From: Octopus vulgaris
Lineage: Eukaryota
Assembly (NCBI GenBank): GCA_951406725.2
Contig: OX597834.1
Location: forward strand, 22,816,001 to 22,880,000
Reading direction: 5' to 3'
DNA: 64,000 bases
Shown: positions 8,763 through 22,554 of the stretch, piece by piece
Layout of the letters: each line of letters starts with the position of its first letter
Position numbering within the stretch: position 1 is the stretch's first letter
The notes under the pieces: model-generated
What the model was told of the DNA's origin: nothing
The model's database searches: none
What the model saw: the letters and a program-made list of their open reading frames with translations, nothing else
Translations under genes and position numbers: made by a program

Positions 8763-9311
8763 ATGAGCGACTCTACTAAACCAGCCAAAGACACTACTAA
8801 ACCGGCCAAAGCCAAGTCTACTAAGCCTAAGGCTCCTCCTAGCCATCCCAAATACAGCGAGATGGTTGCCAGCGCTATCAAATCCCAGAATCAAAAAGGT
8901 GGTTCGTCTAAAGCTGCTATCATGAAGTACATTACCGCCAATTACAAAGTTGGAAACAATACTTCCCGGATCAACGGTAACATCAAACTTACTCTGAGAC
9001 AAGGTGTTCTGAAGCGCACTCTTGCTCAAACTAAAGGTGTTGGTGCCAGCGGTTCTTTCAAACTCCGCAAGGCTGAAGCCAAAGCTGACAAGAAACAGAA
9101 GAAGGTGAAGAAGCCCGCCAAGGTCAGCAAAAAGCCTGCTAAGAAGACCAAAGCGGCGAAACCTAAGAAAGCTGCATCAAAGTCTGCCAAACCCGCTAAA
9201 GCCAGGGTAGTCAAGCCCAAAAAGGCTGGCGCCAAGAAGGCAGTGAAGAAGGTAGCGAAGAAGCAGAAACCCGTCAAGAAACCAACTACAAAGAAAGCTT
9301 CCAAAAAGTAA
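8763..9311 (+). CDS. H1: Histone H1 (linker histone), intronless, 182 aa
   Basis: Globular domain HPKYSEMV..AI...GGSSKAAIMKYI...QTKGVGASGSFKL and a Lys/Ala/Pro-rich tail. Confidence 0.97.
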   Translation: MSDSTKPAKDTTKPAKAKSTKPKAPPSHPKYSEMVASAIKSQNQKGGSSKAAIMKYITANYKVGNNTSRINGNIKLTLRQGVLKRTLAQTKGVGASGSFKLRKAEAKADKKQKKVKKPAKVSKKPAKKTKAAKPKKAASKSAKPAKARVVKPKKAGAKKAVKKVAKKQKPVKKPTTKKASKK

Positions 9312-9335
9312 ATTATTTTTGAAAAGCTTTTAAAG

Positions 9336-9351
9336 GGCCCTTTTTAGGGCC
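9336..9351 (+). terminator. Histone 3' stem-loop (SLBP site)
   Basis: GGCCCT-TTTT-AGGGCC, ~25 nt after the H1 stop. Confidence 0.9.
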
Positions 9352-9548
9352 ATCAACAAGTTTTGATCGTATATGAATCGACTTCAATACGCGATTTTGT
9401 GTGAGTTCGTTTTTTTAGATCAATCGTTAAGTATAACGGTTTCGTGGAGAAATGGCGGCAAGGGCCTTTAAAACTTTTCGTTGGTTATCCCTAAGGTTTG
9501 CAAGAATTTTTTATTAGTACCTTGTATTTGAGGATGGAAGGCTAGACG

Positions 9549-10275
9549 AAAGCTACCAAAAAGTAAATGATTTTTGAGAAGCTTTTAAAGGGCCATGAAC
9601 TAATTTTGATTGTTTATGAATCGACTTCAATACGCGATTTTGTATGAGCTCGTTTTTTTAGATCATTCTTCCGTATTGTCTTGGATAATCGTTAGCTATA
9701 ATGGTTTTTGTGGGGAAATGGCGACAAGGCCCATGGAAGCTTTTCGTTGGTCATCCCTAAGGTTTGCCAAATATTTTTGAATATCCTATATTTGTGGTTG
9801 GAAGGCGAGATGAAAGAAGACCCCAAGTTAGTTTTACTCTTTTATAATACAAAATCGATAGTTTCATAACTGAATACATATACGATGGCTATGAGGGAGT
9901 TATTGCACTACGACTGAAAAAAGATCATTTTTATCCACATAATCGCTTATCTACATTTTAGAAAACGTATTTTTGCGAAATTCTATTTAAGGCCTTGGCA
10001 ATAACTGCATTTAGATGCACCAGTATCTTTGCCGCTTAACTTGAAACGTTTTCGAAATAGATGTTTAAAAATTTGCAGTGAGTTTCGAACCATCTTTTTA
10101 TTACCATTTTCCGTAAATTTAGCATTTCTTTGAAGATCTTTTAGACACCTGTTCAAATAGTTTAATTTGCATGTGCAATATGTTACTAAATGGGTGAGGG
10201 GGTAGGGACTAGGGTGAAGTTTTTGGTTCACTAAATACATACAACCCTGATCGGCGGGTAACATTTCCATTTTTT
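9549..10275 (+). repeat. Remnant of a second H1 3' end and flank with the stem-loop deleted; paralogous to 16444-17300
   Basis: aaagctaccaaaaagtaa...taaagggccatg repeats 9297-9548 without the hairpin and is near-identical to 16446 onward. Confidence 0.85.
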
Positions 10276-12404
10276 ATACACTTGACGTATTCGCAAGGTG
10301 TCTGTAGTTCACATGACTGAATATTTGTGCTTAGAAGGAAAAATTCGTCAACGCCTTCGAAATATGTTCTATTTTATTTAAAAATTGCTTTATTAAAAGA
10401 AAGGGCACTAAACTGACAATCCCTGTCTGGTTGAAATTATCAGTGGAGCATTAAGCCATAGAATTGGCCTGAAAAGTAAACGCAGTGACCCCACACTCAA
10501 GTTTTTGAAGTGGTTTTCGTTTTATCATCGTGTAACCTGTTAACCTGCCACTCGGTCTGCTAGAAACAGCAGCACAACTTCCTTCAAATTACTAACAATT
10601 TTACCTACATTCGATGGTCATGGCAAGATAGGTTTGACCAATGAGGCTGACCTAAACATGTCTCGCAGTTTCATTTGTCGTGAGTGAATTTTCTATTTTC
10701 AATAACAAATTATTATAATCTTATCTGCAAGGCAGGCGACATACCTACAAGTCTAGGAATCTTGCCCGCCTTTTTTGACACTGGTTACCAACCACTCACA
10801 AATTCCGGCTGTTGCTGGCGGATTTGTATTTTAAGCGGGAAGTGGGCCTCTTAGATGTTTAGTTATATTAATGCATGTTTTTTTAAAAATTTTGCTGAGG
10901 TACGTTTCCAAGAGTGTAGAGTATGCTGGTGAAGTCTTGTCCTCATTTACATTTTAAGCCAGTAATGGGCAGCATTTTTTCGAAAAGTGTGCTGCATGAG
11001 ATATGGTTCCTCATCAGAACAGCCAAACTATAAAAGAATGAAAGGTAATTTTTCGTTGCTTGCTATTCAGAAAGTCCTACGGACTGCAGTTTGCTCATAA
11101 CAGTTCTAAGCTCGACAACGTAAAGTGTACTAGCCATCTCAATGTGGCTAGCTGTTATCAAAATAAAAAAAAGTCGGCTAAAATCAGCAGCTCATCTCCC
11201 TTCAAATTGCAATTCTATTTGTATTCGATGATAGCTTAGAATAGATTTGACCAAAGGGACTGACCAGAGATCTGAATGTCTCGGTTGTGAATTCTCTGCA
11301 AATTATAACTCCGATCTGAGATAACAGATCGATACAACTAAAGTTTAGTGCCTCCAGCGACTTTGCTTCATCATTTGCTGACAAATGCATGTATTTTTTA
11401 AACTAAATTTTACAGGGTGTAGATTTTTGAAAAAAAGCTATCTGAAATGAGTTCTGGATCATTATTTCTTTTCCTAGTCCCTGACTTCGTTAATCACCGT
11501 TTTCGTAAATGCAGCATTTTCCCATCTAATTCAGTTTTGCTTGAAATATTGTGTAATTTACGCTTTTCGAGATGCTTTTGTAACTGAGTACTTTTACAAG
11601 TGCAAGTTAATAAAGAGAAAAAAAGATTCATTAACATGTTCGTGATAAACACATACAAAAACATTTGTGTGAATTTCCACTAGAAAATACATACTATTAA
11701 AATTGTGAGATAACTGGTGGCACTAAACTGTTGTTATACTATTATTCTACTTATGAAAAGGCATGGATTGTTTTCTAAATAATAGGGGGGAAATATCGTA
11801 TCTCAACATCGCAACGTAGACCCATGAAAACATTTCTAGAAATTTTCCATTTGAATATATACATTGATAAAGTTATTCGGGAACGTAGCTCGTGGGGCAC
11901 TGAAATGTATTTATAACGATGAGTACTGTAAAAAAAAAAGTTGTGAACATAAAGCAACAGGTATCCTCCTGTTTTAAGATCGCTTTCAACCTGTTTAAAT
12001 TTACCACCCGGGGATTCAAGTATCTCTTATTTAATAGATTAAATGCTGTAAGTTCAGGGTTTTTTCCCTACCCGATACAATAGTAATGTGTAGTGATATT
12101 TATTTCTTCAATTTATAAAATTGCTATGGTCCTATCGAACGAAATTTAGTCTTGTTTCTACTAGAATGCAGGACAAGGTTGAGTTCTTGTTACTGTGTGC
12201 CAATTACGATTAAAAATGTTACTATTTGAATAATGTAACAGAAAAAAAAAAAACGACCGCCAAATTCAATCGGTTATTTTCCCACGTTATTGAAAAGAAA
12301 ACCTTGTTGGGTGGGAAATGAAATTCGCGCCGAACAATAAACTTTCTCATTGTCGTTTTGCTAACGAAGACGGTTTTGCTACTGAGTCTAAATTAAAACA
12401 TTGA

Positions 12405-12955
12405 AATATTTAATGCATTTAAGTACTGTGTGAGTTAAAAGTAGAATAGTTAATTCATTCAAGGACGAGACATTTAAAATGGAGGTGGAGGTACCTCCTT
12501 TGTATATGGGACAGTCATCCTTTTGGATAAATCTCCCATATACCTTAACGGGAAAAGTTTAGGAACAAAGAACACATACATTAAAAATTGAAATTTGAAA
12601 AATATTCTCTATTTTATTCTTTTCAGAATTGTAATCTCTCTTCGAATATTAAGAAATAAAAAAAGTTAACTCATTTGAACTCGAATATAAACAATCAATG
12701 TCTGACAGTTCACGCTGTGGTCACCAACGAAGAGATTTTATAATTGCTTGTGTAAATTAACCTGCGTTTAAATACCGTAAGAACAGTTTGTCTAATCAAG
12801 ATTGAGATATTTAAAGTAAAGGGGAATTTCAAATTAAGAGTGCCATATTCGAAGGGAACGAAGGGGAAAATATGATCTCCAGAAATATTTTTTTTTAAAT
12901 GAAAAGAAAAAAAAAACTTATTCAAACGAGATTGAATAAGCTCTTTTCCATTTTA
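12405..12955 (+). repeat. Local segmental duplication block, paralogous to 17982-18525
   Basis: Long colinear match from tttaatgcatttaagtac to aacgagattgaataagct. Confidence 0.85.
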
Positions 12956-14699: not shown

Positions 14700-15728
14700 C
14701 ATTAAGTGAAACCGCTCTCTCTCTCTCTAGCAACTGAATTACATCATCTGTGACTTCATTTGCCTGTGTATTTTGTTGAATTTGATGTAATCTTTCTTCT
14801 GTTCTCCTGCTTTAAAACCTATAAATTCATAGATACAGTTTGGCTGTATGTTTTCTCAAGCAACTTTCATGATTGAGGATTTCATTTTATCCTATAACTT
14901 ATTTACATCACCATCAAATTTGAATTCTTCCCAGAGGTCTCTAACTTCAGTTTTATCCTCCTCATTAAGCTATCAAAATAATATGCCTTGTAGTTAGCTA
15001 TCCATCAATTGTTTGGAGCAAAGATGTGTTTTTGAGAAATTGTACTTTGTCTTATCAAAAAAATGATTATATGAGTTTATTAAGTGGCTTTGTGCATTGT
15101 GTAAAAGGAGTAATACTTAGTTGGAAAATTGTGCCTGGCATTGCGCTTCTCTATAAAGTGTGCAAACCTGTCTCGGTAATGGTTTGTGGCCAGCCAACCA
15201 TGTTTGAACACTAAATCACAGATATATTAATCTTATGAAAGCCTTTAAAAGATGTTGGATTTTAGTAAGCATTATGAAATAAAAGCACCATAACTAAGTG
15301 CTTTAATTTCATATTACTACATTTTCTTCCACAATTAGCATCAGGGGATGTTTTTGAAGTGTTAAAGCCTGGTTCTAATTTTCTCTCTACTCAAAAGTCC
15401 AGGCAGAAAAACACACCCTGGGGGGAAAAAAATCAACTTTCATTACTTATTCTTGTGTATAGAATATTTAGAACCGTCATTTTCGCCAGTTCTTCAGGAT
15501 GTTTTATAGCAATCTCCGGATTGACAGTGATAGCTTCAGTAGTCATTTTAACGTTGTGCAAATGAAGGCATCTCTTAAAACTTTCAAACCAAATTTTGTT
15601 AATGAGAAGATGCATCTTCCTTTTCTCTGAAAATCACTGAACAAACTATTGGCTTTCGGTTGAATGGCCATTGTGTTTATTGGTAGTACATTAAATTCAG
15701 TCAAATCATTGATCCAACGTAATCTTTT
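14700..15728 (-). mobile_element. Decayed pogo/Tigger-family transposase, truncated at the mariner insertion site
   Basis: WINDLTE..PINTMAIQPKANSLF (CENP-B-type HTH), WFESFKRCLHLHNVKM, LLLLHNAQSH, TSLLQ..ANYKAYY, VRDLWEEF; many stops. Confidence 0.7.
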
Positions 15729-15730
15729 TA

Positions 15731-16272
15731 CGTGGTGTGATCAATAAGCAACATGACCGTTGTCATGGTAACGAAGATAAAGCACGCAGAGTGAAGCCGC
15801 TCGGCACCTGAGAGACTTTACAATCTGCTGTGCATGCGCACTAAGTTTTTACGTTCTAGCCCACTTCCGTTGTTTACAGTAGTTCTTGGGAATCTTAAGT
15901 GTTTAGCGTGTATTTGTCGCATTAACCATGTCAGAGAAAGTCGAGCAGAGAATCTGCATCAAATTTTGCCAAAGGCTTGGCGATACCTGCCTAGAGACCT
16001 ACGCAAAGTTGCAGATAGTTTACGGAGAGGAGTGTATGAGCCGCACACAAGTCTACGATTGGTACAGACGTTTCCAATATGGCCGGAGAAGTGTGGATAG
16101 TGACGAACGGTCAGGGAGACCCGCAACCAGCAGAACGAATAAAAACATCGCAGATGTGCTTGAAGCTTTGAAGAGAAATCGAAAAATCACCATCCGTAAG
16201 TTATCAAAGGACGTGAACATTAGTTACGGTTCGGTTCAGTCCATTATCACTGAAGATTTGGATATAAAACGC
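15731..16272 (+). mobile_element. Left part of a mariner element (TIR, 5' UTR, HTH-coding region)
   Basis: TA|CGTGGTGTGATCAATAAG terminus; translation EQRICIKFC..VYGEECMSRTQVYDWYRRF..DERSGRP. Confidence 0.85.
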
Positions 16273-16473
16273 GAGCCTGCGAAAGTCGCTAAAATGTCTG
16301 GTACTGTGAAAAACAAACCGGCGACACCTAAGAAGGCAGCATTAAAGTCTGCCAACTCTCCCGCAAAATCCAGTGTAGTCAAACCCGAAGAAGCCAGCGA
16401 AGAAAGTGGAGAAGCAGAAACCCGTCAAGAAACTAACAGCGAAGAAAGCTACCAAAAAGTAAATGACTTTTGA
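15928..16473 (+). CDS. Chimeric ORF: mariner bipartite HTH (aa 1-115), H1-derived basic tail (aa 116-153) and frameshift-derived acidic tail
   Basis: Uninterrupted ATG-to-TGA ORF whose 3' part aligns to H1 9110-9311; expression unknown. Confidence 0.6.
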   Translation: MSEKVEQRICIKFCQRLGDTCLETYAKLQIVYGEECMSRTQVYDWYRRFQYGRRSVDSDERSGRPATSRTNKNIADVLEALKRNRKITIRKLSKDVNISYGSVQSIITEDLDIKREPAKVAKMSGTVKNKPATPKKAALKSANSPAKSSVVKPEEASEESGEAETRQETNSEESYQKVNDF

Positions 16474-18559
16474 GAAGCTTTTAAAGGGCCATGAACTAGT
16501 TTTGATTGTATATGAATCGACTTCAATACGCGATTTTGTATGAGCTCGTTTTTTAGATCATTCTTCCGTATTGTCTTGGATAATCGTTAGCTATAATGGT
16601 TTTTGTGGGGAAATGGCGACAAGGACCGTGGAAGCTTTTCGTTGGTCATCCCTAAGGTTTGCAAGATATTTTTGAATATCCTATATTTGTGGTTGGAAAG
16701 CTAGATGAAATAAGTCCCCAATTTAGTTTTACACTTTTATAATACAAAATCGATAGTTTCATAACTGAATACACATGCGATGGCTATGAGGGAGTTATGA
16801 TACTAGGACTGAAAAAAGATTAGATTTTATCGCTATCTGCACCTTGGAAAACGGACGGAGGTAAAGAATACGTACACCACTCGTTTTTGGCGTAACAAAT
16901 ACTCAAATCCTAACCAGCGGGTGTACGTGTTCTTCACTTTCGCCGGGAAACGTATTTCTGCCAAATTTCATTTAACGTCTTGACGACAATAACTGCATTT
17001 AGATGCTCCGGTGGCTTCGCCGCTTAACTTGAAACGTTCACGAAATTGTTGATTTTAAAATATTTGCTGGCAGCTTCGAATCGCCTTTTTATTTGTAAAT
17101 TTAACACTCGTCTCTTTTGAAAATTCATATAAATCTCCGTATTTGTAAAACAGCTGTTCAAATATTTTCATAATTTGCCTGTGCAATATGTTACTGAATG
17201 AGTGAGAGGGTAGGGACTTATTTTCTAAGACGAAGCTGCTAATGGGTCAATAAATTCATACAACCCCGATCGGCGGATAACATTCCTACACTTATATTTT
17301 CCGTAAAATTTTTTATATTTCTTTACTCTTCTTTGGAAGGCGACCATTTACTTTGAACAGCAGAAATTGCAAGACAAGAATTGAAAAAGCGACATTTGCT
17401 TTGAAGTAATGTATGGACGTGTGCGTGCTTGTGAACGAGAAAGTGTGAGTGAGTGAAGGTGTGTTGTATTTTTTTTCTTTTTGCATATATGTGTAAGTGG
17501 CACTCGCTCTCTCTCTCTCACACACATCATCTTTCATATGCACGTATATATATATATCAATACATATACATACATCTCTTTTGTATGTGTGTGTGTGAGA
17601 GAGAGAGCGAGTAAAGGTGTGTTGTCATGCATGTATGTGAAAGAGGCACTCACTCTCTTTTACTTGTTTCAGTCATTTGACTGCGGTCATGCTGGAGCAA
17701 CACCTTTAGTCGAAGAAATCGACCCCAGGACTTATTCTTTGTAAGCCTAGTACTTATTCTGTCGGTCTCTTTCACACACATACATACGTCCATTTCATAT
17801 ACACAAACATACATCTTTCACTTTCTCCTCTATTTCAACTTCCTGCTGTCACTTCAAAGCAAATATCGTCTTCTCATTTTCTCCTCACTTTAAAGAAATA
17901 TAAAAAAACTTTACAGAAATTAACAAACAAAACAGTTGTGATTTTGGACAAGTCTGCAGCTACAACTGAAAGATTGCCAAAATTTAATGCATTTAAGTAC
18001 CATGTGAGTTAAAAGTAGAATAATTTATTCATTCAAGGATGAGACATTTAAAATGGAGGTGAAAGTACACCAGTTTCAGATGACTGTCCCATATACCTTA
18101 ACAGGAAAAGTTATGGAACAAAGAACATAAGTATTAAAAATTGAAATTTTGAAAAACATTCTCCATTTTATTTATTCTTTTTTGTTTTCAGAATTGTTAT
18201 CTTTGTTGGAATATTAAGAAATGAAAAAAAAAAGCTAAGTCATTTAAACTCGAATATAAATGATCAAAGCCTGGCAGTTCGCACTGTGGTTGCCAACGAA
18301 GACAGGGTTTTTATAATTGTGTAAATTAACTTGCGTTTAAATACCGTAAGAGCAGTTTATTTATTCATGGTTGAGATATTTAATGTAAAGGGGGAGTTTC
18401 AAATTAAGAGACCCATACTGGAAGGGAACAAGGGTAAAAATATGATCCCCAGAAATATTTTTTTAAAAAATGAAAGAAGAAAAATAAGAACTTATTCAAA
18501 CGAGATTGAATAAGCTTTTTTTCCTTATTCAAGGGCATGGTTGCCCTCCCTAACACCAC

Positions 18560-21890: not shown

Positions 21891-22554
<664 letters not shown>

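Follow-up and report, generated by a model that had tools for sequence, protein, structure and literature searches.

An open reading frame of 181 codons in the genome of Octopus vulgaris begins as a mariner transposase and ends in DNA related to a histone H1 gene, and it raises the question of whether this join has given the animal a DNA-binding protein or is a transposon fragment whose frame happens to be open. A sequence-only reading had proposed a new chimeric protein targeted to mariner TIRs and linker-histone-like in nature or, failing that, a young, non-functional deletion product. We followed up that proposal in a 64-kb window (G000:C21:22816001-22880000) of the 2.8-Gb genome; positions below are those of this window. 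The reading that we favour, with a probability of about 0.6, is that this single-copy gene, in which a mariner DNA-binding domain is fused to the 3' half of a duplicated H1 gene, encodes a young, SETMAR-like, catalytically dead, domesticated TIR-binder with an incidental tail. Of the original proposal, the captured DNA-binding domain that could target mariner TIRs was supported and the linker-histone-like nature was not.

Anatomy of the fusion locus

The frame is indeed unbroken (15928-16473, plus strand, 181 aa, no stop). In it, a mariner DNA-binding domain occupies aa 1-115 and is followed by part of a duplicate of the H1 gene that lies 7 kb upstream, so that a transposase domain is in frame with host-derived sequence, as expected of a host-transposase fusion. 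The features of the locus are as follows.

15729-15730, plus strand: TA target dinucleotide at the mariner 5' end (from the sequence; the family consensus starts with TA)
15731-15758, plus strand: decayed 5' TIR, length approximate (5/26 or 6/28 mismatches to the consensus)
15759-15927, plus strand: mariner 5' UTR (consensus comparison; the X11 contig begins within it)
15928-16272, plus strand: HTH1, AT-hook linker (RSGRP) and HTH2, aa 1-115, without stop or indel (Pfam, copies, predicted fold)
16273-16284, plus strand: junction zone with in-frame microhomology, mariner VSAK and H1 KPAK (alignment to both parents)
16273-16389, plus strand: H1 C-terminal remnant in the H1 frame, aa 116-154, lysine-depleted (9 K/R in 39 residues; TPKK and SPAK motifs)
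16390-16473, plus strand: acidic alternative-frame H1 tail, aa 155-181 and stop (after a 14-nt deletion; 9 D/E in 27 residues)
16485-16490, plus strand: remnant arm of the histone stem-loop (12 nt lost between two direct AGGGCC copies)
16474-18150, plus strand: putative 3' UTR from the duplicated H1 flank (contig ends; ATTAAA at 18133-18138 by motif scan)
16459-18191, plus strand: putative optional GT-AG intron (C-terminus of the O. sinensis model mapped onto the window; absent among contig joints)
18192-18224, plus strand: alternative last exon, 10 codons and stop (O. sinensis model)
8763-9311, plus strand: intact H1 gene with a stem-loop at 9336, closest paralogue of the tail (Pfam, matches, alignment)
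9545-9935, plus strand: stretch behind the H1 gene that was copied later from the chimera's ORF end and 3' flank (3.5% divergence across 260 nt)

The consensus of the mariner family, built from 29 copies, matched 15729-16283 at 86% identity, beginning with the TA and the TIR, which bears out the claim that a mariner TIR and 5' UTR lie upstream of the frame. No other site in the window resembles a TIR. An alignment to the H1 gene at 9112-9551 (74%, E 1e-83) starts at 16274 and runs on into the 3' flank of that gene, again as had been claimed. Two further H1-locus blocks were matched, 9963-10265 and 12391-12952; since the latter is low-copy (3 matches), a segment of the H1 locus was duplicated. 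The tail DNA had 3 genome matches, all local, and among 11 H1-like loci the local gene was by far the nearest to it. With its tail matched locally only and one TIR in the window, the chimera is a single-copy, immobile locus. It has neither the catalytic DDD domain nor the two TIRs of an autonomous mariner; it is neither an H1 nor an autonomous mariner. Two simpler models of its layout were rejected: full tandem duplication predicts a second mariner downstream, and another model predicts H1 5' remains upstream of the mariner, and no homology to either was found at those places.

The window's setting is a cluster of C2H2 zinc-finger ORFs, tandemly arranged on the minus strand at 21682-63974, eight of them of 317-892 aa. 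Beside this cluster is a pair of divergent H1 genes in opposite orientation, each with a stem-loop: the gene at 8763-9311 and, on the minus strand some 4 kb ahead of the window, one at G000:C21:22811825-22812331. Among ORFs of at least 96 codons from 20 kb upstream to window position 22000, none encoded a core histone. A second group of H1 genes lies at G000:C2:70.43-70.78 Mb (L055, L058, L059, L061, L064), and no stem-loop was seen in the first 80 nt past the stop in the three of these genes that were checked.

The sequence-only reading had placed the junction at 16272/16273. The fusion itself is confirmed, and its exact site lies somewhere in 16273-16284, where codons 116-119 taken together differ from the mariner consensus at 4 bases and from H1 likewise at 4. 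Both parents read AK in the same frame there and share a 6-nt microhomology, so the in-frame join came for free. The junction is contiguous in genomic DNA and lies inside one exon; it did not arise by splicing, the usual though not obligatory route of capture. Since the region contains a local duplication and repeats, one might suspect the assembly of having joined a repeat to an H1 copy. The junction was bridged by contigs in 4/4 runs from 4 studies, which had been chosen from the 20 of 24 listed runs (7 studies) in which 93% or more of the words sampled from 16150-16480 occur; two runs were flagged as a possible source of the assembly. It is present as well in a protein model from another assembly, that of O. 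sinensis. The fusion is not an assembly error, and the chance of such an artefact is negligible.

That model, XP_029648964.1 (P0001), is annotated merely as 'protein GVQW3'. It has the same junction and the same frameshift, and it matches aa 37-177 with 0 differences in aa 37-154 (118 residues) and 2 in aa 155-177 (S160C, G161E). It starts at Met37, without most of HTH1, and its C-terminal peptide maps to 18192-18224 on the plus strand across the GT-AG intron. Being common to the two species, the junction and the frameshift are, by this sequence comparison, older than their split, dated to 2.5 My in the accessible part of PMC10700109. The prediction that related cephalopods would carry the same fusion held for O. 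sinensis and went no further: no other orthologue was found among 116 candidates or the best 150 of 8,108 matches. The exact proteins of the window were absent from a collection of 15 billion proteins. One further protein, P0002, agrees at six residues with the chimera and not with the main consensus, and its best match is the chimera locus; it was rejected as an orthologue from another octopus, given its older-subfamily residues and its continuation into mariner-like sequence.

The chimera is likely transcribed, a judgement in which the RNA status of the runs is a guess (none is recorded as RNA) and the spliced model comes from O. sinensis. The X11 contig agrees with the window at every letter and begins at 15869, ahead of the ATG; transcription likely starts within or before the mariner 5' UTR. 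Contigs in three runs end at 18115, 18129 and 18151, adjoining the ATTAAA at 18133. The contigs contain one coding difference, 16300 G>A, in one run. A>G differences occur over the putative 3' UTR at 16863, 17350, 17865 and 17915, that at 17350 in all four runs; they could be alleles or A-to-I editing.

The mariner domain and its relatives

The sequence-only reading had assigned both HTH motifs to aa 1-115. In Pfam, HTH_48 (Mos1-type; aa 7-52) scored above cut-off, and HTH_32 (aa 42-104) stayed below it. The only PDB sequence match was the SETMAR DNA-binding domain. AlphaFold2 predicted six confident helices in aa 3-110, with pLDDT mostly above 90, falling to 52-58 from about aa 121; a fold search with this model returned 5 matches with E up to 0.001, SETMAR and Mos1. 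Predicted model, fold search and alignment together give a bipartite HTH and AT-hook fold with its contact positions intact. Unchanged from the ancestor at positions aligned to SETMAR base-contact or dimer residues are T40, R61, R64, R90, Y100, G101 and S105, and C10, F13 and Y32; the SETMAR residues are as given in the accessible part of PMC9062482, with numbering mapped by alignment. A 23-nt TIR core had 5,236 genome matches with at most 2 mismatches (control, 0), and the mariner part is predicted to bind these approximately 5,200 candidate TIR sites.

Neighbouring transposase relics had been described as full of stops. In the window, blastn and tblastn turned up no other relic of the chimera's family; genome-wide the description fits, as 45/46 sampled copies were broken over the 115 codons and 1/46 (L031) was intact. 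The 46-54 copies used in the various comparisons were selected for similarity and do not form a random sample. L031 (G000:C10:34793604-34797153) has an open 202-codon frame at 1251-1856 on the minus strand, containing the HTHs and the start of the catalytic domain, and its changes score like neutral decay. Copies L004-L020 are non-autonomous derivatives, many with inverted arms of about 280 bp, that share a deletion of about 31 nt in HTH1. An older sister subfamily, about 20% from the main consensus, is represented by L070, L079, L087, L092, L096 and L097. At 44 subfamily-diagnostic sites the chimera has the main-family state at 34 and the sister state at 7. Its non-CpG divergence, 56/483 (11.6%), is higher than in any of the 54 main-family copies compared, which reach 11.2% at most. 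Because this copy is among the most diverged in DNA, the idea of a young deletion product seems unlikely. At most 5 of its 71 private changes are common to any of the 29 best DNA matches, and two diagnostic patterns gave 1 and 2 exact genome matches, the chimera included. CpGs are retained at the chimera (2/56 transitions, compared with a mean of 21%), and CpG observed/expected is 0.8-1.6 over 15600-17400. This low CpG decay suggests a germline-unmethylated site, and histone loci may give the same picture.

The ratio of amino acid to silent change was uninformative. For pN/pS we obtained 0.53 for the chimera, 0.83 for the 29 copies pooled and 0.45-2.34 for single copies, with the intact L031 also at 0.53; a dN/dS of 0.53 is not significant and does not discriminate. 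The tests that follow used an ancestor corrected for the sister subfamily, with the 7 sister states and one further shared site treated as inherited, from which the chimera differs by 30 nt and 16 aa changes in codons 1-111. Under neutral simulation the frame stayed open in 13% of runs (P 0.13, substitutions alone). Given an open frame, so few amino acid changes had P 0.04-0.05, the total BLOSUM score P 0.009, and the falling of changes on variable positions P 0.0002. The profile score was reached in 0/5,250 simulations, and in the version with a 1-bit penalty per change P was 0.0013; the penalty was introduced because the 162 homologues behind the profile and entropy tests were fetched almost all with the chimera as query and lean its way. 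All 13 of the 13 nearly invariant columns were kept. An earlier profile test was set aside as partly circular and run against the uncorrected ancestor. As a control free of chimera-query bias we used P0173, a full-length mariner found with L031 as query: a search with the N-terminus of this outgroup protein put the chimera locus, with 148 bits against 130, at the top of the 150 genome matches scored out of 30,166 candidates. The L031 query yielded 4 proteins towards an independent homologue set, too few for a profile. By these tests, and given an open frame, the amino acid changes appear to avoid conserved positions, as expected if the mariner domain has been under amino-acid-level constraint. 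Part of that constraint may predate the insertion, and since 7/44 sister-subfamily states are kept, some of the conservative changes may date from active transposition.

The histone-derived tail

The sequence-only reading described an in-frame fusion to an H1 tail and mentioned no frameshift. The ORF follows the H1 frame to aa 154. A 14-nt gap after 16389 then shifts the frame, and the ORF reads an acidic alternative frame to aa 181, instead of H1's own frame, which continues to a stop at 16460-62. The acidic frame was already latent and open in the parent H1. Residues 116-154 contain 9 K/R and 2 D/E (net charge +7) with two S/TPxK motifs; residues 155-181, predicted to be disordered, contain 2 K/R and 9 D/E. 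Over the 66 residues of aa 116-181 this makes 11 K/R and 11 D/E, a net charge of 0; the parent H1, by comparison, has 38 K/R and 2 D/E in a tail of 81 aa (net charge +36). The DNA origin of aa 116-181 and the 3' flank, along with the two S/TPxK motifs, is what the chimera shares with linker histones. It differs from them in the absence of the globular winged helix (PF00538, no Pfam match) and of the 3' stem-loop, 12 nt of which were lost from the chimera's flank, and in a tail that is net-neutral and frameshifted. The copy at 9545-9935 shares the stem-loop loss, and the loss is therefore older than the copying; this copy differs from the chimera at 9/260 sites (3.5%) and from H1's own flank by 13%, which suggests that gene conversion or unequal exchange took place later.

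What the protein probably owes to H1 is a flexible tail with possible CDK sites, and the gene a 3' end, and not chromatin compaction; the tail is most likely a tolerated linker. In the linker-histone account, the mariner domain stands in for the globular one, and chromatin at TIRs is compacted by the H1 tail. The 39 residues left in the H1 frame, with their positive charge and two motifs, are what that account can draw on. Against it stand the neutral charge of the whole tail, the frameshift of its distal part, the missing linker-histone match and the lost stem-loop, and to judge from its composition so eroded a tail would probably not function as a linker histone; we hold the account to be very improbable. 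An activator account makes the same acidity an asset, supposing that the protein activates transcription at TIRs and that the frameshift was selected for an acidic activation tail. It gains from the 9 D/E in a disordered last 27 residues, from the presence of the frameshift in O. sinensis and from the spliced end there, which adds Y, L and W. As a rule, however, such domains require aromatic or leucine residues, of which the acidic segment has few. Moreover, a frame that lay open in the parent needs no selection, and both interspecies differences (S160C, G161E) sit in this segment. Selection for an activation tail is accordingly improbable.

A further explanation is that the chimera is transcribed but non-functional, or no longer functional. 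Its frame would then be open by chance, having lain in a histone locus free of methylation, and its conservative changes would come from a low-copy sister lineage that was still transposing, or from a past spell as a transposon repressor. Several observations fit: the 7/44 diagnostic sites that match the older subfamily, a dN/dS within the range of dead copies, the one copy in 46 that is intact by chance, the frameshifted and lysine-poor tail, the absence of aa 1-36 from the O. sinensis model and the lack of a distant orthologue among the 116 candidates or the best 150 of 8,108 matches. Others do not. The private changes are found in no sister copy (at most 5/71 in the 29 best DNA matches), and the TIR, which an active lineage requires, has changed at 6/28 sites; the two subfamilies differ from each other at 1. 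The outgroup search was led by 18 bits, and 118 residues show 0 differences from O. sinensis. We regard this explanation as rather unlikely, and prefer that of a domesticated TIR-binder.

Origin, known systems and significance

For the domesticated TIR-binder we propose the following history. First, a mariner whose family numbers thousands of copies inserted at TA 15729, roughly 25-45 My ago by estimate; this date takes distances of about 0.10-0.17 and a rate of 0.0036 substitutions per site per My (accessible part of PMC13282606). A DNA join guided by microhomology at the AK codons would then have fused it in frame to the neighbouring H1-locus duplicate, so that the mariner lost its catalytic domain and 3' TIR, and H1 its globular domain. 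Following the deletion in the stem-loop, the transcript would run to the downstream poly(A) signal and become a polyadenylated mRNA, and the 14-nt deletion would have produced the acidic tail end. Selection has likely kept the two HTHs and the AT-hook. By analogy with SETMAR, the protein may dimerise through HTH1 and occupy TIRs. Initially it may have been a competitor or poison of the active transposase during a burst; it may now be a regulator or site-specific chromatin factor at approximately 5,200 TIR remnants.

Several known systems resemble the chimera in part. KP elements, which encode truncated transposase repressors, are mobile and multicopy, and their DNA-binding-only product could compete for transposon ends. 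The chimera resembles the P-element KP protein in this ability and differs in being a single-copy locus with one decayed TIR. SETMAR is the closer likeness: a mariner HTH1-AT-hook-HTH2 domain that is the chimera's best sequence and fold match, a single retained copy, and about 5,000 TIR sites in both genomes (accessible part of PMC9062482). The chimera lacks the catalytic domain and, by Pfam, the SET domain; its mariner part is N-terminal and gives the ATG, its host part is an H1 remnant, and TIR binding, demonstrated for SETMAR (same source), is for the chimera a prediction. KRABINER-type fusions likewise set a transposase DNA-binding domain beside host sequence and show signs of constraint, as the main text of Cosby et al. 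(bioRxiv 10.1101/2020.05.07.082677) describes. According to that text they result mostly from splicing to host exons upstream, and their effector, for example KRAB, is folded; the chimera was joined at the DNA level within a single exon, and its tail is disordered. The word 'histone' occurs 0 times in that main text. Drosophila LOC26532114 is, in the accessible part of PMC13548663, a young lineage-restricted gene with an intact HTH, a lost DDE domain and mild constraint (dN/dS 0.7); it has orthologues and synteny in four species, vs one close relative for the chimera, and the Drosophila Tc1/mariner DNA-binding-module domestications described there include no histone fusion. Transposon-derived factors in Octopus are treated in PMC10027918, the accessible part of which concerns six other families and contains 'mariner' once. 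A literature search, covering mostly openly accessible papers, found no published report of this fusion gene. The kind of event is thus known from SETMAR, the KRAB-transposase fusions and LOC26532114, and the novelty lies in the route and the partner of the capture.

In sum, we have in this locus a candidate for SETMAR-like domestication in a member of the cephalopods, whose gene regulation is suspected to have been shaped by transposons. Because both parents are present, as family copies and as an H1 gene 7 kb away, the birth of the gene can be read stepwise from the DNA. Its route differs from the splice capture of vertebrates, consisting of an in-frame microhomology join to a histone gene, the loss of a stem-loop and a tail in an alternative frame. 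One protein, one predicted 23-bp site and approximately 5,200 genomic targets make a directly testable system. A bolder and unlikely version holds that the gene, born by a DNA-level join, is an octopus-specific transcription factor acting at approximately 5,000 TIR remnants, with H1-derived CDK sites and an acidic alternative-frame tail; if it were true, the chimera would have wired a lineage-specific regulatory network in cephalopods.
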